Assembly (NCBI GenBank): GCA_045862915.1
Contig: BTVE01000009.1
Location: 20,670 to 84,669 of the forward strand
Direction: 5' to 3'
Length of the DNA stretch: 64,000 bases
From: Acidimicrobiia bacterium
GTDB lineage: Bacteria > Acidobacteriota > Vicinamibacteria > Vicinamibacterales > SCN-69-37
Part shown: positions 2 to 43,543 of the stretch, in pieces
How positions within the stretch are numbered: the stretch's first letter is position 1
How the letters are laid out: each line of letters opens with the position of its first letter
Notes under the pieces: generated by a model
Told to the model about the DNA's origin: nothing
Database searches by the model: none
Seen by the model: only the letters and a program-made list of their open reading frames with translations
Position numbers and translations under genes: made by a program

Positions 2-2557
<2,556 letters not shown>

Positions 2558-2560
2558 CCG

Positions 2561-6760
<4,200 letters not shown>

Positions 6761-25134: not shown

Positions 25135-25568
25135 GCGTCCCTCCGTTCGGCCGGGGTGGGCAGGCGGGCCGTGGTCAACCAGAACTGCAGCGTCGCATCA
25201 ATGACGGCGAGAAACTGGTCCAGGTCGACCGGCTTGATCACGTAGGCATTGGCGCCGAGCGCGTAACAGGCACGCACGTCGGCGTCGGCTGAGGACGTGG
25301 TGAAGATCACGACGGGAATCGCGGCCAGCGCCGGATTGGACTTGATGTCGCGCAGCACCTCCCGTCCGTCGCGTCGCGGCAGGTTCAGGTCGAGCAGGAT
25401 CAGATCCGGCAAAGCGGCATGTGGTCGCGTGAGCAGGTCGAGCGCCTCCACGCCATCACGCGCGGTGGTCAGCGCGGCCGATCCGCCGGCTTCGTACATC
25501 GCTTCTGTGGTGAGGCGTGCGTCAGCGGCGTTGTCTTCCACCAGCAGGATGCGTCCTCGCGGTTTCAT
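25131..25568 (-). CDS. Single-domain response regulator (REC only)
   Basis: The ATG at 25568 gives 145 aa: MKPRGRILLVEDNAADARL...LILLDLNLPRRDG...YVIKP. ATGA overlaps on both sides. The longer track ORF (to 25793) is rejected. Confidence 0.85.
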   Translation of the reverse strand: MKPRGRILLVEDNAADARLTTEAMYEAGGSAALTTARDGVEALDLLTRPHAALPDLILLDLNLPRRDGREVLRDIKSNPALAAIPVVIFTTSSADADVRACYALGANAYVIKPVDLDQFLAVIDATLQFWLTTARLPTPAERRDA

Positions 25569-26695
25569 CGGTCCACCGCCGGAAGCGTGAAGTAGAACGT
25601 GGTGCCGTGGCCGGGTGTGGAGGAGAGCCAGATGCGTCCGCCGTGCCGGTCGATGATCTTGCGGCAGATGGCGAGGCCCACACCCGTGCCCGGGTAGGCT
25701 TCGCGTGTATGCAGGCGCTGAAAGATGACGAAAATACGCTCGAAGTACGCGGCGTCGATACCGATGCCGTTGTCGGCGACGCTGAACTGCCACATCTGGC
25801 CATGGCGCGCGACGCCGATATGAATGTGTGGCGGGTCGCTGCCCCTGAACTTGAGGGCGTTGCCGATCAGGTTCGAGAGCACCTGGCGCAACTGGCTGGC
25901 GTCCGCGAGCACCGCGGGCATCTCGTCGTGAGTCACCGTGGCGTTCGCCTGCACGATCGCTGCGCGCAGCCCGTGCAACGTATCCGTCAGCGCAGTGCCC
26001 GCGTCGGTCGCCGATGGGGCCTCTCCATGCGTGGCGACGCGTGAAAATGCCAGCAGATCTTGAATCAGCTGTTCCATGCGACGGGCGCCTCCCACCGCAA
26101 AGTCGATGAACTCGCAGGCTGTGGCGTCCAGGTGCGGCCGATAGCGCCGTTCAAGCAGTTGAAGGTAACTCGCTACCGTGCGCAGGGGCTCCTGCAGGTC
26201 GTGCGAGGCCACGTACGCAAAACGTTCGAGTTCTTCGTTGGAGCGCCGCAGTTCCTCTTCTGCGCGTTTGCGGGGGCTGATGTCCACCACCGACGCGAGG
26301 ACAAACAAGCCCTCGGCGGTCTCGACGGGATTAAGTCCGATCTCGACGGGAATCTCCGTTCCGTCCTTGCGCACGGCAAACAGGTCGCGGCCTGCGCCCA
26401 TCGCCCGGCTGTGAGGGTTGTGGAGGAATGTGTCGCGGTCGCGAGGGTGCTGGTCCCGGAGCCGGCGCGGCACCAGGCGTTCGATCGACTCTCCGAGCAA
26501 CTCGTCCCGGTGGTAGCCAAACAGGCGTTCGGTTTCGCGATTGACCAGACGAATGATGCCGTGGCGGTCGACCATGACCACCCCGGTCGGGGCCGATTCA
26601 ACGACCGCGCGGAACAGATGCTCCGACGGCGCAGCCGCAGGTGTCTCCGACGGTAAACCCGGTCGCGACTCCAGCATGGATGGGAAACCCGTCAC
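25565..26695 (-). CDS. PAS-domain sensor histidine kinase
   Basis: PAS (VMVDRHGIIRLVNRETERLFGY), H-box ASHDLQEPLRTVASYLQLL, HATPase (NLIGNALKF, DNGIGID, GTGVGLAICRKI). Confidence 0.88.
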   Translation of the reverse strand: MTGFPSMLESRPGLPSETPAAAPSEHLFRAVVESAPTGVVMVDRHGIIRLVNRETERLFGYHRDELLGESIERLVPRRLRDQHPRDRDTFLHNPHSRAMGAGRDLFAVRKDGTEIPVEIGLNPVETAEGLFVLASVVDISPRKRAEEELRRSNEELERFAYVASHDLQEPLRTVASYLQLLERRYRPHLDATACEFIDFAVGGARRMEQLIQDLLAFSRVATHGEAPSATDAGTALTDTLHGLRAAIVQANATVTHDEMPAVLADASQLRQVLSNLIGNALKFRGSDPPHIHIGVARHGQMWQFSVADNGIGIDAAYFERIFVIFQRLHTREAYPGTGVGLAICRKIIDRHGGRIWLSSTPGHGTTFYFTLPAVDR

Positions 26696-26779: not shown

Positions 26780-29212
26780 ATGACCGAGTCAGGCGCGTCC
26801 TCCTCTGCTATCGATCGTGTGTTGCCGGCGATGCTGGCGTTGTTCGTGGGGAGCGGCGCCGCCGCGCTGATCTACGAAGTGGTCTGGTTCCAGATGCTCC
26901 AGCTTTCGCTGGGCTCATCGTCGGTCTCCCTGGGCGTGTTGCTCGGGGTGTTCATGGGCGGCATGTGTCTGGGGAGCTGGCTGTTTCCGAAAAAGGTGGA
27001 TGCCACACACCATCCGCTGAAGGTCTACGCCTATCTGGAACTGGGCATCGGCCTCTGCGGCCTGCTGGTCCTGTTCATCGTGCCGCTGCTGGGCGGGGTG
27101 TATGCGGCGGTCGCCGGCACCGGACAGTTCAGCGTGTTCCTGCGCGGCCTTGTGGCTGCCATCATCCTGCTGCCGCCGACGCTGATGATGGGGGCGACGT
27201 TGCCCGCCATCGCGCGTTACGTCGAGACGACCCCCAAGGGTGTGTCATGGATGGGATTTTTCTACGGCGGCAACATCGCCGGCGCGGTCATCGGCACTCT
27301 GCTGGCAGGCTTTTACCTGCTGCGGGTGTACGACATGGTCACCGCCACGATGGTGGCCGTGGCGCTCAACGTGCTCGTGGCGGGTCTGGGCCTGTTCCTG
27401 GCGGGGCGGGCGCCGTATGCCGCTGATCAGAAGGCCAAGAAGGATCCGGTGCTGGCCCCCGGCGCCAGGGTCGTGTACATCGCAATCGCTTTGTCCGGCC
27501 TGACAGCCCTGGCCTCGCAGGTCGTGTGGGCGCGTGTGCTGTCGTTGCTAATCGGCGCCACGGTCTACACGTTCTCGCTGATCCTTGCGGTGTTTCTCGT
27601 TGGCCTCGGCATCGGCAGCTCACTCGGCTCGTCGATGGCCCACACACTCAAACACCCGCGGCAGGCACTGGGATGGGTGCAGATGTTGCTCTGTGTGGCG
27701 CTCGCCTACGCGGCGTACATCTCGACGGCCGGTATGCCGTTCTGGCCCATCAACCCGGCCATTTCCTCGGATCCGATTTTTAACTTCCAGCTTGACCTCA
27801 TGCGCGCGGCCTTTGTCGTCATGCCCGGCGCCATCCTGTGGGGCATGAGCTTTCCATTGGCGCTGGCCTCGGTGGCTGAAAAGGGACAAGACCCCGCCCG
27901 GTTGGTGGGTGGTGTCTATGCCGCCAACACTGTGGGCGCCATCATCGGTGCCTTGTTTGCCAGCCTGCTGGCTATCGCCTGGATCGGGTCGCAGCACACC
28001 CAGATGCTGCTGATTGGCCTGTCGGCGATCTCGGGCCTGATGTTGCTTGCCAGCCACGCCGACGAGGTGGGCAAGGGCAAGTCGCAGGTTGTGAGCATGG
28101 CCATGCTCGTGCTGGTGACAGCCGGCGCGGGTCTGCTGGCGCGGTCGGTGCCGCAGATGCCTGGCTTGCTCGTGGCGTACGGCCGGTACGCCGCGACCTG
28201 GGTCGGTCAGAACGAAATCATCTACTCCGGCGAGGGCATGATGGCGTCCGTCGCGGTGTCGCGCACGCCGAACGGCGTCCTCAACTATCACAACGCCGGC
28301 AAGGTCCAGGCGTCCAGTGAGCCGCAGGACATGCGTCTGCAGCGCATGCTCGGCCACATGACCACACTCATTCCGGAGAACGTCCGTACGGCCGTGGTCA
28401 TCGGTTGCGGCGCCGGTGTCACCGCCGGTGCGGTGTCGATTGATCCCGAACTTGAGCAGATGACGATTGCGGAGATCGAACCGCTGGTGCCGGAAGTGGT
28501 CTCGAAGTATTTCTCCGAACACAACTTCGCGGTGGTGCAGAATCCGAAGGTGCGCGTCCACCTCGACGACGCGCGGCACTTCCTGACGACGACCAAAGAC
28601 AAGTTCGACGCCATTACGTCCGACCCGCTGGACCCGTGGGTCAAGGGCGCGGCCACGCTGTATACGCGCGAGTTCTTCGAACTCGTCAAGACGCGCCTCA
28701 ATCCCGGCGGCATCGTCACATTGTTCGTGCAGCTGTACGAAAGCAGCGAAGAAGCCGTCAAGAGCGAGATCGCCACGTTCCTCGAGGCCTTCCCACAGGG
28801 TGTGGTGTTTGCCAACACCATCAACGGACAGGGCTACGACCTCGTGCTTGTGGGCATGCTGGATCCGAAGCCTATCGATGTGGATCGCGTCCAGGCTCGC
28901 CTGAGTGATCCCAGGAACGCAGCCATTGCGCAGTCACTGGCCGAAATCGGGATCTATTCGGCCGTCGACCTGTTCGGCACCTACGGCGGACGCCGGGACG
29001 ACATGGCGCGGTGGCTGGCCAACGCGCAGATCAACACGGACCGCAACCTCCGCCTGCAGTACCTCGCCGGCCTTGGCCTCAACACCTACCAGGCCGCAGG
29101 TATCTACCGGAACATGACCATCGACAGCCAGTATCCGGAAGGCCTGTTCACCGGCTCGGACGCCACCATGCAGGAACTGCGGGCCGCGATTGAACGGGCG
29201 CATGGCAGGTAG
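26780..29212 (+). CDS. Fused polytopic-membrane / spermidine-synthase-like (aminopropyltransferase-fold) protein
   Basis: 810 aa. The N-terminal ~480 aa are highly hydrophobic with many TM helices. The C-terminal Rossmann part carries VVIGCGAGVTAGAV, MTIAEIEPLV and DAITSDPLDPW, as in spermidine synthases. Confidence 0.75.
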   Translation: MTESGASSSAIDRVLPAMLALFVGSGAAALIYEVVWFQMLQLSLGSSSVSLGVLLGVFMGGMCLGSWLFPKKVDATHHPLKVYAYLELGIGLCGLLVLFIVPLLGGVYAAVAGTGQFSVFLRGLVAAIILLPPTLMMGATLPAIARYVETTPKGVSWMGFFYGGNIAGAVIGTLLAGFYLLRVYDMVTATMVAVALNVLVAGLGLFLAGRAPYAADQKAKKDPVLAPGARVVYIAIALSGLTALASQVVWARVLSLLIGATVYTFSLILAVFLVGLGIGSSLGSSMAHTLKHPRQALGWVQMLLCVALAYAAYISTAGMPFWPINPAISSDPIFNFQLDLMRAAFVVMPGAILWGMSFPLALASVAEKGQDPARLVGGVYAANTVGAIIGALFASLLAIAWIGSQHTQMLLIGLSAISGLMLLASHADEVGKGKSQVVSMAMLVLVTAGAGLLARSVPQMPGLLVAYGRYAATWVGQNEIIYSGEGMMASVAVSRTPNGVLNYHNAGKVQASSEPQDMRLQRMLGHMTTLIPENVRTAVVIGCGAGVTAGAVSIDPELEQMTIAEIEPLVPEVVSKYFSEHNFAVVQNPKVRVHLDDARHFLTTTKDKFDAITSDPLDPWVKGAATLYTREFFELVKTRLNPGGIVTLFVQLYESSEEAVKSEIATFLEAFPQGVVFANTINGQGYDLVLVGMLDPKPIDVDRVQARLSDPRNAAIAQSLAEIGIYSAVDLFGTYGGRRDDMARWLANAQINTDRNLRLQYLAGLGLNTYQAAGIYRNMTIDSQYPEGLFTGSDATMQELRAAIERAHGR

Positions 29213-29235
29213 TACCATCCAGACTTCGCGTTCAC

Positions 29236-30333
29236 ATGGTGCTGCGACGACGGAGTCTGACGCCGGTACTGCTTGCCGTCTTTCTGGCGACCGCCGGGCC
29301 TCTCACGGCCCGGCAGGCGCCGGCGTTGCCGGCGTCGCTGTCCAACGCCCAGTTCTGGGCCCTCAGCAGTGAGTTGTCGGAATCGGACGGATACTTCCGC
29401 TCCGACAATCTCGTCTCAAACGAGATCTACTTTCAGACCATCATTCCTGAACTGATCGAGGTGACCAAGCCGGGGCGTGTCTACCTCGGCGTTGGGCCTG
29501 AGCAGAACTTCACGTACATCTCGGCCCTCAAACCGCGCATGGTATTCATCGTGGACGTGCGGCGCGGGAACCTGCACACACACCTGTTGTACAAGGCGCT
29601 GTTCGAGATGGCGAAGGACCGCGCAGACTTCGTCTCGTTGCTGTTTTCGAAACCCAGACCGGCGGGTCTGACGACCAAGAGCACGGTGCAGGAGATCTTC
29701 AACGCATTCCTGCCGGTCGAGACGTCGGAGACGGCCTACAAGACAAACCTGGCGGCTGTACTCGATCACCTCGTGACCACACGGGAGATCCCGCTGAGCG
29801 TCGACGACCGCAAAGGGATCGAGTACGTCTACTACCACTTCTACTGGTTCGGACCCGGACTGACGTATTCGTCGAGCACCGGTGGCGCGGCACGCGGCAA
29901 CTTCGTCAACTACCAGTCGTTGATGGTGGCCGATGACGGTCTCGGCACCTCGCGCAGCTTTCTGGCGTCGGAGACCCACTTCGACTTTCTCAAGGGACTG
30001 CACGCCAGAAACCTCATCGTGCCTGTGGTGGGCAACTTCGCCGGTTCCAAGGCGCTGCGCAATCTGGGCGCGTGGATCAAGGCGCACGGGTCAATCGTCT
30101 CGGCGTTTTATCTCTCGAATGTCGAGCAGTACCTGAGCGGCGACGGCCTCTGGTACACGTTCTGCGGCAATGTGGCGCAGTTGCCGCTGGACGACACGAG
30201 CACCTTCATCTACTCACAGACCGGCGGACGGGGCGGCGGGGGTCGCGGTTCGCTGCTCTCGTATTACCGGCCGATGCTTCAGGACGTCAAGGCGAACAAA
30301 TGCGACATCGCACCGCCGCCGATTCCACGCTGA
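29236..30333 (+). CDS. Secreted protein of unknown function, paralogue 1 of 3
   Basis: Signal peptide MVLRRRSLTPVLLAVFLATAGPLTA. Shared motifs: SDNLVSNE, YLGVGPEQNFTYI, FIVDVRRGNL, NLIVPVVGNF, YLSNVEQYL. Confidence 0.7.
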   Translation: MVLRRRSLTPVLLAVFLATAGPLTARQAPALPASLSNAQFWALSSELSESDGYFRSDNLVSNEIYFQTIIPELIEVTKPGRVYLGVGPEQNFTYISALKPRMVFIVDVRRGNLHTHLLYKALFEMAKDRADFVSLLFSKPRPAGLTTKSTVQEIFNAFLPVETSETAYKTNLAAVLDHLVTTREIPLSVDDRKGIEYVYYHFYWFGPGLTYSSSTGGAARGNFVNYQSLMVADDGLGTSRSFLASETHFDFLKGLHARNLIVPVVGNFAGSKALRNLGAWIKAHGSIVSAFYLSNVEQYLSGDGLWYTFCGNVAQLPLDDTSTFIYSQTGGRGGGGRGSLLSYYRPMLQDVKANKCDIAPPPIPR

Positions 30334-31430
30334 CGTTCTGGCGGCTCGTCGTGGCGATTGTCTCCACGATGGCACTGGCGGTCTCGGCACCGTCGGCATC
30401 GCCGGCCGACCTGCGGGTGCCGGAGCGGCTGTCTGATGCGCAGTTCTCGCACCTGATGACGGAGTTCTCCGAAGGCGACGGCTACTTTGCCTCCGACAAT
30501 CTGGTGTCGAACGAGCTGACGTTTCAGTGGGTGATTCCCGATCTGCTCAAGGCCTGGACCAACGGGCGCGCCTACGTTGGCGTCGGACCCGATCAGAACT
30601 TCACCTATATCGCCAACCTTCGCCCCTCGGTCGCATTCATCGTCGACATCCGACGCGACAATCTGCGGCTGCAGTTGCTCTACAAGGCGTTGATGGAGAT
30701 GGCGCCCTCGCGCGTCGAGTTCCTGTCGCGGCTGCTGTCGCGGGAGCTCACGTCACCGGTGCCGGCAGACGCGTCAGCTGCCCGTCTGTTTCAGGCATTT
30801 GCGGAAGTGAAGCCCACCGTAGACCGCTTCGCCGCAACGTTTACGGCCGTCAAGGAACGCCTGACCGTGCAGCACGGCCTCCTGTTGTCGGAAGACGATC
30901 TGGGCCACATTGAATACGTGCTGACGGCGTTTTATTACGCAGGCCCCTCGCTGGCGTACGCCAACACCGGATTCCGCGGCCGGTATCCCAGTTACCAGGA
31001 TCTGATGGTCGCCACCGACGAGGCGGGCGACGCGCGGAGTTATCTCGCCGATGAGCAACGGTATGGCGTTGTCCGGCAGATGCAGCTGCGGAATTTGATC
31101 GTTCCGGTGGTGGGAGACTTCACCGGGACGCGTGCGCTCCGCGGCGTGGGGCAGTGGCTCAAGGATCACGGGGCGACGGTGGGGGCGATCTACACGTCCA
31201 ACGTCGAGCAGTACCTCTTCCAGTACCAGACCTGGCCCCGGTACTACGAAAACGTGGCGACGCTGCCGATTGATGACGCCTCGCTGTTCATCCGGTCGTG
31301 TTTTAACACCTGTTCCACCGTGCCGTGGTCGCGCTCGGCGCAGCTGCTTGACCCGGTCGCGGCGCTGTTGCGGGATGTGGCCGCCGGCAAGGTGCAGTCC
31401 TACTGGGAACTGCTCGCGCGCTCCCGCTGA
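30300..31430 (+). CDS. Secreted protein of unknown function, paralogue 2 of 3
   Basis: I chose the ATG at 30300 (MRHRTAADSTLTFWRLVVAIVSTMALAVSAPSA), which overlaps paralogue 1 by 34 nt. Motifs: SDNLVSNE, YVGVGPDQNFTYI, FIVDIRRDNL, NLIVPVVGDF, YTSNVEQYLF. Confidence 0.65.
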   Translation: MRHRTAADSTLTFWRLVVAIVSTMALAVSAPSASPADLRVPERLSDAQFSHLMTEFSEGDGYFASDNLVSNELTFQWVIPDLLKAWTNGRAYVGVGPDQNFTYIANLRPSVAFIVDIRRDNLRLQLLYKALMEMAPSRVEFLSRLLSRELTSPVPADASAARLFQAFAEVKPTVDRFAATFTAVKERLTVQHGLLLSEDDLGHIEYVLTAFYYAGPSLAYANTGFRGRYPSYQDLMVATDEAGDARSYLADEQRYGVVRQMQLRNLIVPVVGDFTGTRALRGVGQWLKDHGATVGAIYTSNVEQYLFQYQTWPRYYENVATLPIDDASLFIRSCFNTCSTVPWSRSAQLLDPVAALLRDVAAGKVQSYWELLARSR

Positions 31431-31439
31431 CGTTCGACA

Positions 31440-33032
31440 CTACCAGTCTGGCGTCACGCCGAATTCCTCGAAGTTCGTGAGGAGGACGCCGATGTCGCCT
31501 GCATACCAGGCAAGGCTCCACACACACGTGATGACCGCTGCCGCGATACGCCAGCGCGGCGCGTGGCGTGGTGGTGTCAGCAGCAGCGGCAGCGACACCA
31601 GCAGCGGCGAGATGTGTTTGGTCATGCGCCAGTCCACGAAGGTGAAGACCACGGCCGTCACCAGCGTCCACGACAACAGCAGCGCGGTGAACGTGTGATC
31701 GCGCGGGACACAAGCGTGCCGGAGGTCGTGACACGCGCACAGGATTGCCACCGGCAGGAGTAAATATCCCGTGTGCCCACCGAACTCGCGCCACAGGCCG
31801 AGGTGCGACAGATAGCCCTCGTAGCCGAGCGGGTTGTCGTGGGTAATTCGGTCCATGAGGTGGTGCTGGACGTGGTCGGCGAGGAAGTCGCCCGGATTCA
31901 CCAGCAGTCCCCAGATCCAGAACGCGGCGCTGCCGGCGGCAAAGGCGAGCACGATGCCGCCCGTGCGGTGCCACGCACGCATCCATGTGCCTGCGGTCAG
32001 CCGAGCGCCGGCGAGCAGGGCTGCCGGCAGCAGCACCAGTTTGTGGTTGGCCAGCGCACCCCATGCCGCCGCCCAGGTGATGCCGCGAAGACGCCGAATG
32101 TGGTCAGCGTGCACGAGCATCAACAGTGCGGCACAGGTCGAGATCGCGAAATAGCCCCCATACGAGGACCGCACGAGTACCTCGGGATTGGCGGCATACG
32201 CCAGAGCCATCAAGGCGCCGAGCCACACGCGACGTGACCGGCGCACCGTGATCACTGCAATCATCGCCACCGAGAGTGCTGCCAGGACGACATTCGGTGA
32301 GCGGGTCTCCGCGATCAACGGGGTGCGGGCGTAGTGTTCGTACGCCGCCGCCAGCGCGGCCGCATCGTCACGGCCAGTCGCGGCTGAGGTGATCGTGTCG
32401 TACGCCCGAAGCGACTCCACACCACCCTGCAGGACGATCGACGCGGCGCCATAGACGTGGAGCAGTGGCGGATGGGCAAAGTAGTAGAGCAGCCCACGAT
32501 CATTGATCACCCGCGGCGTCAGGGATGTCAGCAGGGCATAACCGGGGCCCTGCAGATCCAGGTCGTGGTCCACCATCGGCGGCACCACGGCAACGGCCAT
32601 CCGCTCGAACACGACGAGTGATCCCGCGAACATCACCACCGCCAGCGCGGCGGCCGCTCCCCGGACAGCTCGAGTCGCAGGGACGCGCGTGACGCGGCCT
32701 GACGGCAGGACGAACGGCAGGATCACGCCCATCGCGGTGAACGCGCACAGTGAGAACCAGAGTGACGCGGCGGCCAGGGGCACTGCGACCAGCCGCAACG
32801 CCAGGGCAGCGACGATCAGGACCAGCGCTGCGGCGACGAGGTCCCGCGCCAGGGTGACACCCCAGGCGCGCGAGTGCGAGCGCCAGCACCAGCGCCACGC
32901 CACGCCCGGCAGCCACCCGAGCACCGCAGTGACGATGAGCATGCGCAGCGGGCCTGGCCAGAGGTGGAGCACCGCCGGGTGTGCGGCCAGCATGCCGAGC
33001 ACGACTCCGGCCGTCGTGCGCACCGACTTCAC
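31440..33032 (-). CDS. Polytopic membrane protein with a GT-C (ArnT/PMT-like) signature
   Basis: 530 aa, more than 10 hydrophobic segments. The first large loop carries VDHDLDLQG...YYFAHPPLLH, resembling the acidic motif plus HPPL of GT39/GT83-type enzymes. Confidence 0.5.
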   Translation of the reverse strand: MKSVRTTAGVVLGMLAAHPAVLHLWPGPLRMLIVTAVLGWLPGVAWRWCWRSHSRAWGVTLARDLVAAALVLIVAALALRLVAVPLAAASLWFSLCAFTAMGVILPFVLPSGRVTRVPATRAVRGAAAALAVVMFAGSLVVFERMAVAVVPPMVDHDLDLQGPGYALLTSLTPRVINDRGLLYYFAHPPLLHVYGAASIVLQGGVESLRAYDTITSAATGRDDAAALAAAYEHYARTPLIAETRSPNVVLAALSVAMIAVITVRRSRRVWLGALMALAYAANPEVLVRSSYGGYFAISTCAALLMLVHADHIRRLRGITWAAAWGALANHKLVLLPAALLAGARLTAGTWMRAWHRTGGIVLAFAAGSAAFWIWGLLVNPGDFLADHVQHHLMDRITHDNPLGYEGYLSHLGLWREFGGHTGYLLLPVAILCACHDLRHACVPRDHTFTALLLSWTLVTAVVFTFVDWRMTKHISPLLVSLPLLLTPPRHAPRWRIAAAVITCVWSLAWYAGDIGVLLTNFEEFGVTPDW

Positions 33033-34855
33033 CGCGCGGCTCCTGGAATGCGGTAGTACGCGCAGACGCCGTCGTCGACGACCAGCGGCAGTTGCAGCGG
33101 CAGCGTGTTGTTGGCGATGACGTCAACGAAGCCGTACTTCGCGGCAAGGGCCACCCACTGTGCCGTGGTGCGATCAGGCCATCGGATGGCCAGTTCACTG
33201 CGCATCCCTGTGGGAATGGGCTGATGGTAGATCTCGTCGAGCATTTGGGCGGCGCGTGGCAACACCGCGGGCGTGAACGGCAGGATGTTGATGTCCATCA
33301 CCTCGAACAGGAATGGTCGCCGCGTGCGCGCCTGTATCCACTCGGCCGCCCACAGCCGTGGAGCCAGCAGCAGTGTCCCCTCGAACCGGCTGGCCTCGGC
33401 AAGTGCGACATGGCAGGCACCGGTTCCGCCGGCACCGTACCATCGGCTGCGCTGGAACGGCAGCGCACACATCACGAGAACCGCCACCGTTGCCAGCCAG
33501 CCCCACCAGCGAGGCACCCGGCGGGTGGGCCGGCCCACGGCGCGGCTCTGCATGAAGGCGACTGCAAGCACGAGGCCCAGGGGGCCGACACCAGAAAGAA
33601 AGTACAGCGCGGTCTTCAGTGGTGTCGCCGGGGTGGCGAGATACGCCGCGCCAAACCCTGACCAGAACGTGATGCCCTGCACGAGTGCCATCTGCACCGC
33701 GATGAGTGTGCCTGCCAAGAGCAGTGCGGCAAACCGGTGCCCACCGACCAGCGCCAGGTGAGCCAATCGCGCTCCGGTCACCACGATGAAAAACCAGGAC
33801 GCCACATTCATCCATCGCGGGATCAGAGCCGTGCGCATCTGCCAGGGGACAACCGTCGGCGCGTACGCGAGCGTGACCGTAAACGCGGCGCTGATGACCG
33901 TCATCGTCAGCACGACCGCCGCCACGGCTCGTACGCCGGGTGGCAGCAGCGAGCGCCAGCGCGTCAGCAGCAGAGTTCCCAGCAGCAGCGTGTGAAACGC
34001 CGGCTCGAGCAACAGGTGCAGCCGCCTCGTCGCAGGAATGACGGTGTGATCGTTCCAGCGTTCAACGATCTGCCGCGCGAACGTTTGCGCTGCGGCGAGA
34101 TCGACCACCGGCGAGGAGGGCAGATACAGGAAATACGCGGCCAGCGACACGACACCAACGCCGAGGCCGATCGCCGCCATCCGCGCCACACCGGGCCACG
34201 CGTCGCCGACACGCGCACGGCCCAGCCAGGCGACCGGCAGCAGGGCTGCGTACAACGGCAGCGCGAGGCCAGGGTGGATGAACGGCAGGAGCGCTGCGGG
34301 AAGGGCCGCCGCCTTCCAGCGCTCGAGTCCAATCAAGCCAAGGATCAGAATGCAGAGGTACAAACCGACGGCGCCAAACACCCCGGGCGCGGCCGGAAAG
34401 GTGTTCGGATACAGGTGCCCGTGAAACACGTCGACGTACATGCCGATCCATCGAGGCTGGTGCATCGACAACTTCACGATGAGTGCCAGGGTGATAACAG
34501 CTGACAGCCAATGTCGCGAAATGGCCAGCGCGAGTGTCGTCAACGCTGCGCACGCGAGTGCGCCCTGCAGTCCGGAGAAGATGAGCGAGACATACCATTC
34601 CCGGATGCCCATCCACAGCAGCAGCGCGGCGAGCTGCGTGACAAGCGAATGCGGGCGGAGGTAGGTCAGCGGGACGAGACTGTCGGCCGGGTACTCGACA
34701 ACGCCGGCGATGATCTGCGCCGGTATGAGGTTGTCGGTCCAGACAGGCTTGACCAGCACACCCAGCGCCGCTCCGAGCAGCGCGGCGACACCGATCACCC
34801 AGGCGGTCGGTAATCGGTCGGCGTGCATGCGCCATTCTGTCATATCGAGTTTCAT
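33029..34855 (-). CDS. Large polytopic membrane protein, unknown function
   Basis: 608 aa, many TM segments plus a ~130-aa C-terminal soluble part. ATGA overlap with the downstream GT-C-like gene. Alternative starts at 34843 or further in. Confidence 0.55.
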   Translation of the reverse strand: MKLDMTEWRMHADRLPTAWVIGVAALLGAALGVLVKPVWTDNLIPAQIIAGVVEYPADSLVPLTYLRPHSLVTQLAALLLWMGIREWYVSLIFSGLQGALACAALTTLALAISRHWLSAVITLALIVKLSMHQPRWIGMYVDVFHGHLYPNTFPAAPGVFGAVGLYLCILILGLIGLERWKAAALPAALLPFIHPGLALPLYAALLPVAWLGRARVGDAWPGVARMAAIGLGVGVVSLAAYFLYLPSSPVVDLAAAQTFARQIVERWNDHTVIPATRRLHLLLEPAFHTLLLGTLLLTRWRSLLPPGVRAVAAVVLTMTVISAAFTVTLAYAPTVVPWQMRTALIPRWMNVASWFFIVVTGARLAHLALVGGHRFAALLLAGTLIAVQMALVQGITFWSGFGAAYLATPATPLKTALYFLSGVGPLGLVLAVAFMQSRAVGRPTRRVPRWWGWLATVAVLVMCALPFQRSRWYGAGGTGACHVALAEASRFEGTLLLAPRLWAAEWIQARTRRPFLFEVMDINILPFTPAVLPRAAQMLDEIYHQPIPTGMRSELAIRWPDRTTAQWVALAAKYGFVDVIANNTLPLQLPLVVDDGVCAYYRIPGAAR

Positions 34856-34860
34856 ATAAT
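34855..34860 (+). promoter_or_regulatory. Perfect TATAAT box 11 nt upstream of the ATG at 34872
   Basis: The sequence catTATAATcagtcgcaccgATG lies in a 16-nt divergent gap, and the box overlaps the start codon of the minus-strand gene. I found no good -35. Confidence 0.3.
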
Positions 34861-34871
34861 CAGTCGCACCG

Positions 34872-36686
34872 ATGAGTGCTGACGAGCGCGAGCGCTATCG
34901 CCTGTGGCCGTCGGTGCTGCTGCTGGCGTGCGCCACGCTCGTCGTGTGCGCGCCGTTGCTGACGCGCTGGGACGCCTACGGCTGGCAGGACTGGGACCAG
35001 TTCACCACAAGGCATGAGGTCGCGCGGCTCGCGGTCATGACCTTCCGCGACTGGCCCGTCTGGAATCCCTACGCCGAGGGAGGCACGGTGCTGCTGGCGC
35101 ATCCCCACTCGCCGGTGCTGGCTCCGTGGTTCGCTCTGACACTCCTGCTCGGGTCTCAGATAGCCGTACGTGTGCTCGTCGTCGCGGCCATGTGGCTTGG
35201 CGCAGTGGGAATGGCGGTCTGGTTGCGCGACCACCGCGCAACACGTGCGGCAGGTGTGCTGGCCGGCATCCTCCTGATGATGTCGACCCATTACGTGCTG
35301 CACGTCACCGAAGGACACCTGGAGTGGACGGCGCTGGGCGTGATGCCGTGGGTGGCGGTGTGGCTGGAGCGCGCGGCTGCCGGACGCAGGCGGGCCGGCG
35401 TCATCGCAGCGCTACTGCTCGCCTCGGTGCTGATCTCTGGAAACGTCTACATCCCGGCCCTGTTTGCCATCGTCCTGACGACCTGGTCGATGTTGGAAGC
35501 GGTGCGTGCACGTACCCTCAGGCCGGTGGTGGTCTGGGGGGCCGCGGCCGCGCTGGCGGTGGGCCTTGCTGCCGCAAAGTTGATCCCGACGGCGATGTTC
35601 GTCCGCGAGTACCCGCGGGAACAGACGCTGGTCAGTCACACGTCGCTGAACACGCTGCGTGCAGCCCTGTTCCACCCGAAGCCTGCGGCGATCTACCACT
35701 ACTACCGTGACGAAGCCGCGGTCGGGCAGGATCCTCCGCCTCCCGCTCCAGCCGACCTGTTCGAGATGACGGTGGGCTTCCATGAAGCCGGCGCGTACCT
35801 CTCTGCGGTTGGTATTGCGCTTGTATGCGTTGGCGCGCTTGGCGCATGGCGTCGTCACTGGCCGCTGCTGATGACCGGCGCTGTCGCGGGTGTGTTCGTG
35901 CTGGGCTGGACCTCGCCGATTGATCTGTGGGCCGAGCTGCACAAGCTGCCGTTTTATCGCCAGTTGCAACTGCCGTCACGCATGCTCGCCGGAGTCATCT
36001 TCGTCGCAGCCTTTTTCGGCGGGCTCGGACTGGACCTCGTCGTCCACTGGCTGCGCGGCCGGACCCACAGGGCGGTGCTGGTCGGCTGGCTGCTGATCGC
36101 CCTCAGTTATGGCGAGTTGGCGATACAGGCGCATCTCGTCTTCCGCGACGTCTTCCGCCTGTCGCCGATCGTCCTGCCGGTCAGTCCCACGTTTGTGCAA
36201 CACGAGCCGCCGCCACAGGCTGCCGAGCGGGTGCCGCATCAGATGCACAGCCTGCTGTTGCCGCGGGTGCGCGCCAATTGGGGTGCGCTCGACGGATACG
36301 AAAACCTGGCCGTCGAGCAGGGCGACGTCATGGTCGTTGGTGAGCTCGGCTACCGCGGCGAGGTGTTCCTCACAGGGACTGACGGGACCGTGACGCTCTC
36401 GCACTGGTCGATGCGCGCGCTCACCATCGAGGTCGTCGCCTCATCACCCGGCGTGTTGACCGTCAATCAGAATTTCGATCGCGGGTGGTCCGTCGAGGTG
36501 ACGCCGGAGGCCGGCGCGACATCCCCCCAGCCGGCGGTGGAAGCGACGGGCCGTTTGCTTGCCGCGCCCGTCCCTCAGGGCCGTTCGCGTGTGACGTTCA
36601 CCTACTGGCCGCGTGGCCTGGCCGCCGGCCTCTGGCTCTCGGCGCTCAGCCTGCTGGCGGCCGCCGTCTGGTGGCGAAGGCCATGA
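34872..36686 (+). CDS. Large polytopic membrane protein, unknown function (possible glycosyltransferase/polymerase-type)
   Basis: 604 aa. The N-terminal ~430 aa have many TM helices. The C-terminal ~170 aa are soluble, followed by a final TM (GLWLSALSLLAAAVWW). Confidence 0.55.
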   Translation: MSADERERYRLWPSVLLLACATLVVCAPLLTRWDAYGWQDWDQFTTRHEVARLAVMTFRDWPVWNPYAEGGTVLLAHPHSPVLAPWFALTLLLGSQIAVRVLVVAAMWLGAVGMAVWLRDHRATRAAGVLAGILLMMSTHYVLHVTEGHLEWTALGVMPWVAVWLERAAAGRRRAGVIAALLLASVLISGNVYIPALFAIVLTTWSMLEAVRARTLRPVVVWGAAAALAVGLAAAKLIPTAMFVREYPREQTLVSHTSLNTLRAALFHPKPAAIYHYYRDEAAVGQDPPPPAPADLFEMTVGFHEAGAYLSAVGIALVCVGALGAWRRHWPLLMTGAVAGVFVLGWTSPIDLWAELHKLPFYRQLQLPSRMLAGVIFVAAFFGGLGLDLVVHWLRGRTHRAVLVGWLLIALSYGELAIQAHLVFRDVFRLSPIVLPVSPTFVQHEPPPQAAERVPHQMHSLLLPRVRANWGALDGYENLAVEQGDVMVVGELGYRGEVFLTGTDGTVTLSHWSMRALTIEVVASSPGVLTVNQNFDRGWSVEVTPEAGATSPQPAVEATGRLLAAPVPQGRSRVTFTYWPRGLAAGLWLSALSLLAAAVWWRRP

Positions 36687-37411
36687 CGACGGTGGACGTT
36701 GTGGTGCCGGTGCGCGACGAAGCGCATGTGCTGGAAGGATCGATCGCGCGACTGCGCGACTTCCTGGCGGCACACGCGGGCTACGACTGGACGATCACGA
36801 TCGCGGAAAACGGCTCCACCGATCGGACGCGCGAGATCGCCGGACACCTGTGTGCGGCTGACCCGCGGCTGCGATTCCTCGCGCTTGACCTGCCCGGACG
36901 TGGTCGCGCGCTCCGGCAGGCCTGGACGACCTCCGTCGCCGACGTGGTGTGTTACGTGGACGTTGATCACTCCACCGAACTGGCAGACCTGCCGAAGCTG
37001 ATCGATCCGGTCGCGACAGATGTGTGTGATCTGGCCGTGGCCTCTCGCAGGCTGCCCGGATCCCGTGTGCGACGCTCGTGGCGACGGCAGGTGATCTCCG
37101 ACACGTACAACACGTTGCTGCGTGTCGCGCTCTCGGTGTCATTCTCGGATGCACAAACCGGCTGCAAGGCGCTGAGCCGCCGCGTCGTCACCGAACTGCT
37201 CCCCGACGTGGTTGACCAGTCGTGGTTTCTCGACACAGAACTGCTCGTGCTGGCCGAACGCCGCGGCTACCGCATTCTCGATGTCCCGGTGTCGTGGACC
37301 GAGGATGACGACAGCCGAGTGCGGATCATCCCGACCGCGATTGAAGACATGAAGGGCGTGTTCCGGCTCTGGCGCACGCACGGTCGCCGACCACGAGGAG
37401 CGCGCGCGTGA
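36683..37411 (+). CDS. GT2-family glycosyltransferase, polyprenyl-phosphate sugar synthase (Ppm1/GtrB-like)
   Basis: The ATG at 36683 overlaps the upstream stop (ATGA). VDVVVPVRDE...ITIAENGSTDRT...VCYVDVDHST...TGCKAL is a GT-A fold with a DxD-type VDVD. Confidence 0.75.
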   Translation: MTTVDVVVPVRDEAHVLEGSIARLRDFLAAHAGYDWTITIAENGSTDRTREIAGHLCAADPRLRFLALDLPGRGRALRQAWTTSVADVVCYVDVDHSTELADLPKLIDPVATDVCDLAVASRRLPGSRVRRSWRRQVISDTYNTLLRVALSVSFSDAQTGCKALSRRVVTELLPDVVDQSWFLDTELLVLAERRGYRILDVPVSWTEDDDSRVRIIPTAIEDMKGVFRLWRTHGRRPRGARA

Positions 37412-38775
37412 AGGTCGCGCTCGTCAACCCCGGACAGACGACCGTGGTGAGTCGCCGTGGTCGCATCTACAACCGCGTGTGGCCGCCGCTGGATCTGGCG
37501 ACCACTGCCGGCGGCCTGCTGAGCGACGGAGTGGATGTGTCGATCGTCGACGCAAACGCCGAAAACCTCACCCCCGCCGAGGTCGCCGATCGTGTGCGCG
37601 GCGCCGACATGGTCTTCGTCACATCGTCGAGCCTCGATCGCTGGCAGTGTCCAGTCCTCGACCTCCGTCCGTTCCACGAAACCGTCGCGGCACTGCGTGC
37701 CCAGACACCGCAGCTCATCGTCCTTGGCAGCCACGGCACCGTGCGGCCGGCCGAGGTGCTTGCGCTCACGCAGGCGAACGCCGTTGTCCGCGGTGAGCCC
37801 GAAGCGACCGTCCGTGCAATTGTGCGGAAGGGGCGTGCAGACGATGTGCCTGGTGTGACGTGTCGCGACGCCGATGGCCGAAGTGTGCATCACGCCGATC
37901 CACCCCCGATGCCGCTGGCGCAACTGCCGGCGCCCGCGTGGCACCTGCTCCCGATGGACCGGTACCACTACGAGGTGCTGGGCGGGAACTTCACGCTCTT
38001 TGAAATGAGCCGCGGCTGCGCTTCGTCATGCACCTTCTGTCTGTTGAAGACATACGGCGAAGGCGTGCGCCGCAAGCCACTCGATGCCTTGTTGCGCGAG
38101 ATTCACACCGCGGTGACCGAGCACGGTGTACGGACCGCCTATTTCATTGACCTCGAGTTCACCGTGCTGCGCAAACAGGTGCTTGAACTCTGCGCGGCCC
38201 TTGAAGCTGCGAAGTATCCGCTCACCTGGTGCTGCCAGACGCGGCTCGATCTGGTAGACGATGAGCTGCTGGCGGCGATGGGTCGAGCCGGATGCCGCTT
38301 GATTCATGTCGGTGTGGAGGCGGGCAGCGATCGCGTGCTGGCATCCACCAACAAGGACCTGACACTGGCACAGGTGAGGGAAGGGCTCGCGAAGATTCAC
38401 GCTGCGGGGATCGACACCGCGTGTTTTTTTCTGCTGGGGCTGCCCGGTGCCACACGCCAGGATGCGGATGACTTGTTGCGGCTGGCGATCGAACTCGGAC
38501 CGACGTATCCCTTGTTCCACGTCGCCGCGCCGTATCCCGGGACGGCCATGTACGACGCCGTGCACGACACGCCGGGAGCCGCGTTCAGCGACGAGTCGCT
38601 GTTTCCCGAAGCGGTCGTGGGGCCGTTGACGTTGCAGGAACTCAAGGGCCTGACGCGTCGCGCGTACCTGCGGTATTACGCGAGGCCCGCGTATGTCGCG
38701 GCGAGGATCCGGCGAGGGCAGTGGGGGCTGTTGTGGCGGCAGGCCCGGCTGTTTGCCGGACTGGTCCGCAGCTGA
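37408..38775 (+). CDS. B12-binding-domain radical SAM enzyme
   Basis: GTGA overlap with the GT2 gene. N-terminal cobalamin-binding Rossmann part (KVALVNPG...VDVSIVDANAENL...MVFVTSSS). Radical SAM cluster FEMSRGCASSCTFCLL (CxxxCxxC). Confidence 0.8.
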   Translation: MKVALVNPGQTTVVSRRGRIYNRVWPPLDLATTAGGLLSDGVDVSIVDANAENLTPAEVADRVRGADMVFVTSSSLDRWQCPVLDLRPFHETVAALRAQTPQLIVLGSHGTVRPAEVLALTQANAVVRGEPEATVRAIVRKGRADDVPGVTCRDADGRSVHHADPPPMPLAQLPAPAWHLLPMDRYHYEVLGGNFTLFEMSRGCASSCTFCLLKTYGEGVRRKPLDALLREIHTAVTEHGVRTAYFIDLEFTVLRKQVLELCAALEAAKYPLTWCCQTRLDLVDDELLAAMGRAGCRLIHVGVEAGSDRVLASTNKDLTLAQVREGLAKIHAAGIDTACFFLLGLPGATRQDADDLLRLAIELGPTYPLFHVAAPYPGTAMYDAVHDTPGAAFSDESLFPEAVVGPLTLQELKGLTRRAYLRYYARPAYVAARIRRGQWGLLWRQARLFAGLVRS

Positions 38776-38791
38776 GAAGATACGGGCATCC

Positions 38792-39961
38792 ATGTTGCCG
38801 TCCCGCCGGACCCTCGTCGGCATCCTGATTGGGTGCCTCGGCCTGCTGCTGGTAGGCGCCGGCTCGGCATGGCGCGGTGTCGTGGAGCCGCTGCCCGAGT
38901 CGCTCACCAACGAGCAGTTCTGGGCGCTGACCCAGAAGTTCTCGGAGCCAGACGGTTTTTTTCAGTCCGACAACCTGGTCTCCAACGAGCATTCGTATCA
39001 GTGGGTGGCGCCGGCGCTTGAGCAACAACGGCGACCGAATCTTGTGTACCTGGGCGTCGCGCCCGACCAGAACTTCACCTACATCCTCGCGCTCCAGCCG
39101 CGCATGGCATTCATCGTCGACATCCGGCGCGGCAACCTGGTGACGCACCTGATGTACAAGGCGATCTTTGAGTTGTCGGCCGACCGAGCCGACTTTCTGT
39201 CGCTGCTGTTTTCACGGCCGCGCCCCGAAAGCCTCAGGGCGGACGCGCCGGTGGGCCAGTTGCTGGATGCCTTCATGCGCGTGCCGGCTGATGAACTGCA
39301 GTTTCGCGACAACCTGCTCATCCTGCAGCACCATCTGACCAAGACCCGCGGGTTCCCGCTGACGGCCGAGGACCTCCGGGGGCTGGACAGCATCTACAGC
39401 AACTTCTATTTGTATGGGCCTCAGCTGGCGTACTCCTCCAGGGGCGGCTTCCGGTCGGCGCCGTTCGGGATGGGCGGGACTGGCCGAGGCGGACGGAACC
39501 GGTTTCCGAGCTGGCAGGAGATGGCCCGCGAAGCGGACGGCAGTGGGGTGCAGCGCGGGTACCTCGCGAGTGAGACGGCGTTCAAAGCCGTCAAGTCGTT
39601 CCAGGAAAAGAACTTGCTAGTGCCGGTCGTGGGTGACCATACCGGACCCAAGGCGCTGCGCGAAGTGGGCCGGTACATCCGTCAGCACGGGGCCGTGGTG
39701 GGCGCGTTCTACACGTCCAACGTCGAGCAATACCTGTTTCGCTACGGGACGTGGGAACGGTTTGCCGAGAACCTCGGGCATCTGCCCGTGGACGACCGAT
39801 CCGTCATCATCCGGTCCGTATCTCCACGCGATGGCTACCTCGGCGTGCCCCAGGGCCCTGACGGGCGGTCCAACGTGCTCGACCCCATCGGTCCTCTCGT
39901 TCGCGACGCGGCGGACGGAAAGATCCGGGGGTATTGGGACGTGACGGGGCGCAGCCGGTAG
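38792..39961 (+). CDS. Secreted protein of unknown function, paralogue 3 of 3
   Basis: The ATG at 38792 (MLPSRRTLVGILIGCLGLLLVGAGSA) lies after the radical SAM stop. Motifs: SDNLVSNE, YLGVAPDQNFTYI, FIVDIRRGNL, NLLVPVVGDH, YTSNVEQYLF. Confidence 0.7.
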   Translation: MLPSRRTLVGILIGCLGLLLVGAGSAWRGVVEPLPESLTNEQFWALTQKFSEPDGFFQSDNLVSNEHSYQWVAPALEQQRRPNLVYLGVAPDQNFTYILALQPRMAFIVDIRRGNLVTHLMYKAIFELSADRADFLSLLFSRPRPESLRADAPVGQLLDAFMRVPADELQFRDNLLILQHHLTKTRGFPLTAEDLRGLDSIYSNFYLYGPQLAYSSRGGFRSAPFGMGGTGRGGRNRFPSWQEMAREADGSGVQRGYLASETAFKAVKSFQEKNLLVPVVGDHTGPKALREVGRYIRQHGAVVGAFYTSNVEQYLFRYGTWERFAENLGHLPVDDRSVIIRSVSPRDGYLGVPQGPDGRSNVLDPIGPLVRDAADGKIRGYWDVTGRSR

Positions 39962-39964
39962 GTA

Positions 39965-40159
39965 TTGTCTATGGTGGTTACCGGCGAATACCATCGAGCC
40001 ATGCGCACGGTCGAGGTGGTTGCCGGTTTGCTGAGGGAGTGGGCTCGGCGGGGGTGGCTGAGTCCCCCCGTACATGTGCCTCTGCCGGCCGTTCGCAAGC
40101 CGGTGGCCCCGCTGGCCACGGTGCTGCTTGAACTCGACCTCGACCGCGACGACCGCTAG
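39965..40159 (+). CDS. Small hypothetical protein (64 aa)
   Basis: It starts (TTG 39965 or ATG 39971) 3 nt after the paralogue 3 stop. Third-position GC is about 80% by hand count, consistent with coding. No recognisable motif. Confidence 0.3.
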   Translation: MSMVVTGEYHRAMRTVEVVAGLLREWARRGWLSPPVHVPLPAVRKPVAPLATVLLELDLDRDDR

Positions 40160-40547: not shown

Positions 40548-40925
<378 letters not shown>

Positions 40926-40939
40926 GGGGAATCTGAGTC

Positions 40940-41413
40940 ATGCCGCGTAGACGAGAAATTCCAAAGCGTGAAGTTCCGGCGGATCCGATTTACGACAGTC
41001 CGCTGGTCACCAAGTTCATCCGCACGATCATGAAGGACGGCAAGCGGTCCACCGCGGAGCGCATCATGTACGGCGCGCTCGATATCGTGAAGGACAAGAC
41101 GGCCGACGATCCGCTCAAGACCTTCAAGAAGGCCGTCGACAACGTCAAGCCCGCGCTGGAAGTGAAGTCCCGCCGCGTGGGTGGTTCCAACTACCAGGTG
41201 CCGGTCGAGGTCAACCCGACCCGCCGCCTGTCCCTGTCGCTCCGCTGGCTCGCCGGCTACGCCACCGAACGTGGCGACGGCAAGACGATGCAGGAGAAGC
41301 TGGCCAACGAATTCATGGATGCCGCGAACCTGCGGGGTGGAGCCGTCAAGAAGCGCGAAGACGTGCACCGCATGGCCGAAGCCAACAAGGCGTTCGCGCA
41401 CTACCGCTTCTAA
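40940..41413 (+). CDS. rpsG: 30S ribosomal protein S7
   Basis: [20 protein letters not shown]...[11 protein letters not shown]. Confidence 0.97.
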
Positions 41414-41434
41414 TCGGGCAGGACGTTAGCAGTC

Positions 41435-43543
<2,109 letters not shown>

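Follow-up and report, generated by a model that had tools for sequence, protein, structure and literature searches.

A putative lipid-carrier glycosylation cassette with a radical SAM enzyme, lying within an operon of exported DUF7790 proteins in a Vicinamibacterales genome

Introduction

Teichoic acids are glycosylated by an experimentally established route, in which a cytoplasmic glycosyltransferase of family GT2 makes a C55-phosphate-linked sugar that passes through a flippase to an extracellular transferase of the YfhO type (PMC7389260). This three-component system, described as CsbB/GtlA-GtcA-YfhO/GtlB in Bacillus, Listeria and Staphylococcus (PMC7389260), offers the nearest mechanistic parallel to part of a gene region that we analyse here, located in a 64,000-nucleotide stretch (the window; G+C content 65%) of contig BTVE01000009.1 from a genome of the Vicinamibacterales (Acidobacteriota). 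Nine of its open reading frames (ORFs), lettered A to I, are divided here between module 1 (A, B, C and I), which joins a membrane protein carrying a spermidine-synthase-fold domain to three exported DUF7790 paralogues, and module 2 (D to H, positions 31440-38775), which encodes three polytopic membrane proteins, a GT2 and a radical S-adenosylmethionine (SAM) enzyme. Our comparison of gene neighbourhoods suggests that the region probably consists of two juxtaposed modules, module 2 being a cassette that was inserted between C and I in a recent ancestor.

Like the teichoic acid system, module 2 has a small GT2 gene beside a gene for a weakly YfhO-like protein, and it would follow the same logic, leading from a polyprenyl-phosphate sugar through flipping to transfer outside the membrane. 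It differs in its host, a Gram-negative-type acidobacterium, in the lack of a GtcA/GtrA-type flippase, in having three large membrane proteins instead of one, and in a core that includes a radical SAM enzyme with a B12-type domain. Moreover, its YfhO-like protein, F, matches only the C-terminal end of YfhO. A partial likeness also exists to mycobacteria, where Ppm1, a soluble DPM1-like GT2, supplies several co-encoded enzymes of the GT-C class (AftA/AftB/PimE, GT87). AftA and AftB are among the structural matches of D, and GT87 and PMT_2 genes accompany D homologues; however, there is no membership at the sequence level, and both phylum and envelope differ.

The radical SAM protein H has an N-terminal B12-type domain followed by the radical SAM core, an arrangement shared with AprD4, responsible for C3' deoxygenation in apramycin biosynthesis, and with HpnJ, which forms the cyclitol ether of hopanoids and acts downstream of a GT2, HpnI. 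Nevertheless, H scores far below both equivalog cutoffs, and no aminoglycoside or hopanoid genes are found nearby. A literature search for radical SAM enzymes in connection with GT-C, YfhO or polyprenyl carriers returned the teichoic acid system only, and nothing on this gene combination.

For module 1, the nearest relatives are two. LipL40 (LIC10091) of Leptospira interrogans is a putative lipoprotein that was included as a non-binding control in adhesion assays (PMC2935396), and our literature search on DUF7790, LIC10091 and its structure 6ULO met LipL40 as an antigen or control only. B, C and I are related to it and are likewise exported, but their identity to it is only 17% and they miss the LIC_10091 equivalog (49-67 bits against a cutoff of 350). 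Protein A, in turn, resembles the fused MFS/spermidine synthases (NF037959) and membrane-bound SpeE (PRK03612) in its 6+6 transmembrane repeat and C-terminal SpeE fold, and it passes the NF037959 cutoff, whereas it falls far below the PRK03612 and speE equivalogs and lacks both the acidic residue of the GGG(D/E)G motif and the YHE motif. No description of the fused MFS/spermidine synthase family was found in our literature search.

Results and discussion

Gene neighbourhoods separate two modules

In the related loci L001, L002 and L011, the genes A, B, C and I are contiguous and are one-to-one orthologues of those in the window. The order in L001 and L002 is A, B, C, I, a GntR gene and then rpsL, with the I orthologue directly after that of C and tblastn identities of 86% (A), 74% (B), 69% (C) and 67% (I); within 10 kb of these genes, tblastn detected none of D to H. 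A profile scan of one genome per species yielded 80 loci. A lies next to DUF7790 genes in about 25 of them, none of which contains D to H, and in about 20 of these 25, from genomes of Vicinamibacterales/Acidobacteriota, A is contiguous with an array of 2-11 DUF7790 copies that in most cases lies just upstream of rpsL. Pairs of A with one DUF7790 gene located away from rpsL were found in a Gemmatimonadaceae genome (L034) and in a metagenome-assembled genome (MAG) labelled Betaproteobacteria (L033), which indicates that the pairing is older than its position at the str operon. Module 1 appears to be the older of the two, a conserved operon found in Vicinamibacterales and in some Gemmatimonadota.

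The five genes of module 2 were found between C and I only in the window and in three contigs of close relatives, namely L005 (66% identity for D and 91% for H) and L091 and L092 (about 98%). All nine genes A to I keep the same order and orientation in these three contigs at 66-98% protein identity, which argues that they are more than chance ORFs. In L006, D (51%), F (52%), G (67%) and H (74%) occur together without A or any DUF7790 gene, accompanied by two further GT2 genes, an FkbM-type methyltransferase and a PMT_2-like protein, so that D-F-G-H can be regarded as a module in its own right. More distant homologues of D are always located among membrane glycosyltransferases of the PMT_2, YfhO and GT87 families, small GT2s, DegT aminotransferases and epimerases, in one case (L101) near a GT9 heptosyltransferase. 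The initial annotation had treated the whole region as one locus; given some 25 A-DUF7790 loci without D to H, and D-F-G-H without A in L006, this co-localization is not conserved and a single co-evolving locus is not supported.

In two other loci, a gene of about 615 codons on the opposite strand lies between DUF7790 copies, in a position like that of D to H (L038, 12377-14230; L042, 13418-15262). These genes are unrelated to D to H, the one in L038 having a weak Esterase match (PF00756) and the one in L042 none, and comparison ruled out that they are E-like. Their presence suggests that the array tolerates insertions. The G+C content at third codon positions of D to H (0.77-0.83) equals that of the rest of the genome and gives no compositional sign of recent transfer; either the event is not a recent one or it drew on a donor of similar composition. 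For genome scanning, the region is instructive in that tight packing and overlapping stop and start codons did not amount to one pathway here; the comparison of synteny split the locus.

A GT-C-fold protein and two further membrane proteins

D belongs to a rare family, with 35 relatives among 5.8 billion clusters. Its AlphaFold model is of high confidence, with a predicted local distance difference test score (pLDDT) of 91.9 and a predicted template-modelling score of 0.93. Foldseek against the PDB placed ArnT first (5F15, E 3.3e-05, probability 1.00), at a modest TM-score of 0.47, followed by AftA, DPY19, STT3, AftB, Pmt4, ALG3/9/12 and PglB; nearly all high-probability matches are GT-C enzymes. 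The modelled structure thereby assigns D to the GT-C fold, which bears out the earlier guess. Two motifs stand out, VDHDLD at residue 154 and YYFAHPPLLH at residue 183: D155 and A186-H187-P188 are invariant across 24 homologues, D157 is kept in at least 90% of them, and F185, P189, L190 and H192 are nearly invariant. The loop carrying the acidic motif is predicted to lie on the periplasmic side, and the small GT2 genes found near D and its homologues make it a putative user of a polyprenyl-phosphate sugar. At the sequence level, the D family profile retrieved nothing meaningful from the PDB, and a Pfam scan of 24 members gave no family, only marginal TMEM260-like and PMT matches in single members.

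Protein E had four close relatives in a word-indexed search and 1,036 representatives in a profile search, while a metagenome scan with a narrow alignment gave 7 loci. No Pfam family was matched by 49 members of the E family, and the family profile found no match among PDB sequences. In two unrelated contigs, relatives of E adjoin GT2 genes of 234 and 245 codons, which fits a role in the same lipid-carrier chemistry; we therefore consider E a candidate GT-C-type transferase or carrier-lipid flippase.

The YfhO model PF09586 matches F at 31.5 bits, above its cutoff of 28.5, but aligns with the C-terminal 80 residues alone (profile positions 756-835 of 835); F is also matched by PF10131 at 17 bits and by the PgfM1 equivalog at 16 bits against a cutoff of 1400; PDB sequences gave no match. 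It carries a WQDWDQF motif at residue 38, after the first transmembrane segment. Its orthologues (76% identity in L005, 52% in L006) always lie next to G and H, and F is a candidate GT-C transferase. Pairwise profile comparisons with hhalign detected no relationship between E and D or between D and F, which indicates that the three membrane proteins are not recent paralogues.

A soluble GT2 and a radical SAM enzyme

G carries a GT2 domain (PF00535, 69.9 bits) with its DxD motif (DVD) at residue 93. The only solved relative is the dolichol-phosphate-mannose synthase of Pyrococcus (5MLZ, E 4.3e-07), and weak NCBIfam matches are mostly to polyprenyl-phosphate sugar transferases (AglJ, DPM, PpgS, ArnC and PgfS), all missed as specific equivalogs (26-46 bits against cutoffs of 325-529). 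G has no hydrophobic or transmembrane segment and lacks the C-terminal helices of GtrB and ArnC, resembling the soluble DPM1/Ppm1 type. It is a candidate polyprenyl-phosphate sugar synthase. The two-step logic first proposed for the locus, a GT2 followed by a GT-C enzyme, is upheld by the fold of D, shared with ArnT, AftA/AftB, STT3, Pmt4, ALG and DPY19 enzymes, together with the likeness of G to DPM synthase.

A more specific version of such a scheme would be an Arn-type modification of lipid A or the lipopolysaccharide (LPS) core, in which an amino- or deoxy-sugar carried on polyprenyl phosphate by the GT2 is put on lipid A by D. ArnT is the best structural match of D, G has a weak match to ArnC, and the D homologue in L101 is accompanied by a GT2 of 330 amino acids, a DegT aminotransferase, an acetyltransferase and the heptosyltransferase mentioned above. 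However, no Arn equivalog cutoff is reached (G scores 26 bits against 529 for ArnC), equivalents of ArnA, ArnB, ArnD, ArnE and ArnF are absent from the locus, and other GT-C enzymes have TM-scores similar to that between D and ArnT. We consider an Arn-type pathway distinctly unlikely.

H combines a radical SAM domain (PF04055, 84.5 bits) with a B12-binding domain (PF02310, 34.4 bits, cutoff 32.1), and its CX3CX2C motif reads CASSCTFC at residue 204. The best NCBIfam matches all remain far below their cutoffs, reaching about a quarter to a third of them (HpnJ, 145 against 577.6 bits; TIGR04295, 141 against 400; AprD4, 134 against 500), and the best solved relative is AprD4 (6FD2, E 1.1e-30). 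Orthologues of H share 91% (L005) and 74% (L006) identity with it. No gene of the locus reaches the cutoff of a characterised NCBIfam equivalog, and together with the outcome of the literature searches this makes it fair to say, as the initial annotation did, that the locus is not assignable to a described pathway.

Radical SAM enzymes also raise the option of lipid remodelling, either of membrane-spanning or branched lipids or of hopanoid side chains by HpnJ-type chemistry. Acidobacteriota produce unusual membrane lipids, HpnJ is the best NCBIfam match of H, and G has a faint match to HpnB. On the other hand, the scores of H are far from the cutoffs, not only for HpnJ but also for HpnR (57 against 650 bits) and the ladderane-type lipid radical SAM family (90 against 360). 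No other hpn-type family was found among the 30 window proteins scanned against Pfam (positions 56-44703), and H invariably has a small GT2 gene and genes of the GT-C type linked to it. The best matches of H, AprD4 and HpnJ, act on sugars or sugar-like substrates. The earlier idea of membrane-spanning lipids finds no support, and we hold lipid remodelling as a whole to be highly improbable.

Proposed function of module 2

Module 2 is best read as a self-contained, laterally movable cassette for extracytoplasmic glycosylation via a lipid carrier. By homology, G would take a sugar from its nucleotide-activated form and attach it to polyprenyl phosphate on the cytoplasmic side of the membrane. 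H may tailor this sugar, or a precursor of it, for instance through deoxygenation, C-methylation or a rearrangement, which is the weakest step of the scheme. The lipid-linked sugar would then be flipped, with E as the candidate flippase because no GtrA/GtcA-type flippase is present, and D, F and possibly E would transfer it to acceptors in the periplasm, of which LPS, lipid A or some other glycan of the envelope are the likeliest. The cassette would have landed between the second and third DUF7790 paralogues, I now being read after H.

Several points weigh against this reading. The acceptor, the sugar and the radical SAM reaction are not readable from sequence, the YfhO match of F is limited to the C-terminal 10% of the model, and dependence of H on B12 is putative, AprD4 itself not being known to use cobalamin. 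Neither junction (9 nt between the convergent stop codons of C and D, 16 nt from the stop codon of H to the start codon of I) bears an insertion scar, and no repeats were seen. A gain here, as opposed to a loss elsewhere, is argued from parsimony over the sampled loci. Finally, the placement of the cassette within the operon, with I after H, is kept in four contigs and is compatible with a functional link to module 1.

Such a link would fit the view taken initially, in which the genes form one integrated pathway. The cassette would then act on module 1 itself, for instance by O-glycosylating the DUF7790 proteins, or by glycosylating an envelope molecule modified by A and DUF7790. Analogues exist, as Pgf glycosylates streptococcal adhesins and PMT/Ppm1 glycosylates secreted proteins of actinobacteria. 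In favour of this view, the cassette lies inside the operon, not beside it, both junctions are tight, the arrangement persists in the four contigs although D has diverged to 66% identity, and F and G have weak matches to PgfM1 and PgfS, respectively. These Pgf scores are negligible, though (16 against 1400 and 26 against 500 bits), and the A-DUF7790 loci that lack the cassette, the cassette without module 1 in L006 and the unrelated esterase-like gene at a similar array position in L038 and L042 all argue against integration. We therefore regard one integrated pathway as unlikely.

If the lipid-carrier reading of module 2 is correct, the polyprenyl-phosphate-sugar scheme would be extended by a conserved radical SAM tailoring enzyme and by two membrane protein families outside Pfam (D and E), and a sugar modification of the envelope that has so far gone unrecognised would be indicated for Acidobacteriota, which dominate in soil and are difficult to culture. 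Two more specific readings, one for each module, can be considered jointly, although we hold the pair only tentatively and on the doubtful side. In the first, H acts on the polyprenyl-phosphate-linked sugar, as a fourth enzymatic component added to the GT2/flippase/GT-C scheme, and the tailored lipid-linked donor is installed on the envelope by the rare, ArnT-like D family and by the E family. In the second, the SpeE-fold domain of A is periplasmic, and A and DUF7790 form an extracytoplasmic system for alkyl transfer or ligand handling, although SAM would not be expected on that side of the membrane. None of this is new in kind; what the region offers is two unannotated membrane protein families, an unusual setting for a radical SAM enzyme and two large families that are paired in a conserved way.

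Protein A and the DUF7790 paralogues of module 1

Protein A matches PF01564 (Spermine_synth, 75.9 bits, cutoff 22.9) and the subfamily model NF037959 for fused MFS/spermidine synthases (123.5 bits, cutoff 40), but remains below the speE equivalogs TIGR00417 (76 against 249.55 bits), PRK00811 (86 against 260) and PRK03612 (148 against 472). The SpeE fold, at residues ~505-720, is supported by matches to 23 SpeE structures (best E 1.9e-15). Aligned to 1UIR and 3O4F, however, the GGG(D/E)G loop reads GCGAG and YHE reads LQR, while the D-x-x-D-P loop is retained as SDPLDP and the acidic residues that bind the nucleoside are retained as well (EIE, DDAR). GCGAG and LQR are invariant in 23 orthologues, in which SDPLDP is conserved too. 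In SpeE structures, it is the acidic residue in GGG(D/E)G that keeps out the SAM carboxylate, and its loss makes A unlikely to be a genuine decarboxylated-SAM aminopropyltransferase. Of the earlier term 'aminopropyltransferase-like', the fold stands, but the acidic residue and the YHE motif are replaced in 23 of 23 orthologues; A probably binds an adenosyl ligand and makes no spermidine.

Hydropathy indicates for A an internal repeat of 6+6 transmembrane segments and a 13th segment. The mean number of lysine and arginine residues, summed over loops, is 15.2 on the side assigned as cytoplasmic and 2.3 on the opposite side. With 13 segments and this positive-inside bias, the SpeE-fold domain is predicted to be periplasmic, which, at face value, would place it beside the exported paralogues. 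This prediction conflicts with the conserved nucleoside-binding residues of A.

The DUF7790 family (PF25046, cutoff 23) is matched by B, C and I at 92.6, 122.2 and 100.6 bits, respectively, and each starts with an ordinary signal peptide. A search with C retrieved more than 7,600 relatives, the closest from MAGs of Vicinamibacterales and other Acidobacteriota. Only 6 of 113 relatives have a lipobox-like motif. Export by the twin-arginine translocation (Tat) route was considered and rejected, as 64 of these 113 N-termini contain an arginine pair but only 16 a Tat-like consensus. The AlphaFold model of C (pLDDT 88.4) matched 6ULO, an uncharacterised Leptospira protein of the LIC_10091/LipL40 family, with a Foldseek E of 4e-14, and more weakly class-I SAM methyltransferase folds such as those of Dam, CypM, NNMT and NodS; a profile search (E 8e-18) likewise gave 6ULO as the one solved relative of B, C and I. 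The invariant polar residues of the family cluster in motifs such as SDNLVSNE, GVGPDQNFTY, FIVDIRR and SNVEQYL, which suggests an enzyme or a specific ligand site.

In many other loci, DUF7790 is present as a single gene that has neither A within 10 kb nor a conserved neighbour. Across 52 loci of such singletons, no neighbour family occurred in more than 8, and the neighbours that were checked (ABC permease, TPR regulator, amino acid permease) are unrelated. In some Acidobacteriota, 8-11 tandem copies or fragments follow A (L004, 7745-14776; L019, 5999-15600), against three here; the family is expanding and decaying in tandem arrays.

Module 1 would thus pair the MFS-like membrane domain and SpeE-fold domain of A with exported paralogues of methyltransferase-like fold. 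The conserved operon links two large families to which no function is assigned, fused MFS/spermidine synthases and DUF7790/LipL40, in two phyla. It provides a genetic handle on both and is a caution against annotating A as a polyamine synthase.

Gene calls and genomic surroundings

All ORFs and coordinates of the initial annotation are present in the ORF list (Table 1), and Pfam and NCBIfam scans upheld its domain calls. It counted eleven ORFs, whereas its own list sums to ten, and gave the overlap of E and D as ATGA, which is GTGA; the ATGA overlap of F and G and the GTGA overlap of G and H were right. The starts chosen for C (30300, giving 376 amino acids) and I (38792, giving 389) are the likely ones according to the calls in near-identical contigs, while A is called with either 810 or 793 amino acids in other contigs.

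Table 1. Open reading frames of the studied region, with positions in the window
ORF	Position	Strand	Description
A	26780-29212	+	810 aa; MFS-like domain and spermidine-synthase-fold domain; first gene of module 1
B	29236-30333	+	365 aa; exported DUF7790 paralogue 1 (PF25046), signal peptide; module 1
C	30300-31430	+	376 aa; exported DUF7790 paralogue 2, signal peptide; module 1
D	31440-33032	-	530 aa; glycosyltransferase of predicted GT-C fold, rare family; distal gene of the minus-strand pair; module 2
E	33029-34855	-	608 aa; polytopic, with C-terminal soluble domain of ~130 aa; no Pfam family; module 2
F	34872-36686	+	604 aa; polytopic, weakly YfhO/PTPS-related; module 2
G	36683-37411	+	242 aa; soluble GT2; module 2
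H	37408-38775	+	455 aa; N-terminal B12-binding-type domain and radical SAM core; module 2
I	38792-39961	+	389 aa; exported DUF7790 paralogue 3, signal peptide; module 1 gene now downstream of H
J	39965-40159	+	64-aa ORF, TTG start; no family match

Two ORFs were listed initially after H. The third secreted paralogue, I, stands, whereas J is not conserved: it has no Pfam or NCBIfam match and no tblastn match in related loci. DNA similarity to L092 (a strain contig with 98% identity), L091 and L005 extends no further than the stop codon of I, which makes J unlikely to be a gene. In L005, the last 60 nt of I occur twice (2193-2252 and 3077-3136), and I is followed by toxin-antitoxin genes (PIN, PhdYeFM), not by rpsL.

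The divergent genes E and F are separated by only 16 nt (34856-34871), and either both promoters lie inside the neighbouring coding sequences or transcription comes from further away. Scans for promoters and terminators gave signals at background level. Rfam had zero matches over the whole window, and hence there is no cobalamin riboswitch.

Upstream, the locus adjoins minus-strand histidine kinase and response regulator genes; downstream it is flanked by rpsL-rpsG-fusA (40548-43543). Together with rpoB-rpoC (56-6760), the latter delimits an interval of 6.8-40.4 kb in which the locus lies. While rpoC and rpsL are usually adjacent, here about 33 kb of accessory genes separate them, comprising, besides the studied locus, DsbD-like and thioredoxin genes, two-component genes, and genes for a family B DNA polymerase, a BlaR1-like protein and a beta-lactamase; the content of this interval varies between related genomes. 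The histidine kinase, response regulator and hybrid kinase genes (23206-26695), which separate A from the thioredoxin gene in the window, are absent from L091, which is about 98% identical across the locus and in which thioredoxin and MFS genes adjoin A directly, a strain-level insertion or deletion. An FkbM-type methyltransferase gene (PF05050, 14890-15804) lies 11 kb upstream of the locus; the same family occurs beside the H orthologue in L006, and this recurrence may be a coincidence.

Upstream of rpsL, the noncoding segment 40223-40530 resembles its counterparts at that position in L002 and L012, with 77-78% identity over ~220-320 nt. It has no Rfam match and is conserved though the protein-coding neighbours differ, and it may be a conserved leader or promoter region of the str operon.

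The window genome and its closest relative (P0121, P0015, L011) are recorded as 'Acidimicrobiia bacterium'. Most other close relatives are labelled Vicinamibacterales, Acidobacteria/Acidobacteriota or Solibacteraceae, and the 'Acidimicrobiia' label is probably wrong.

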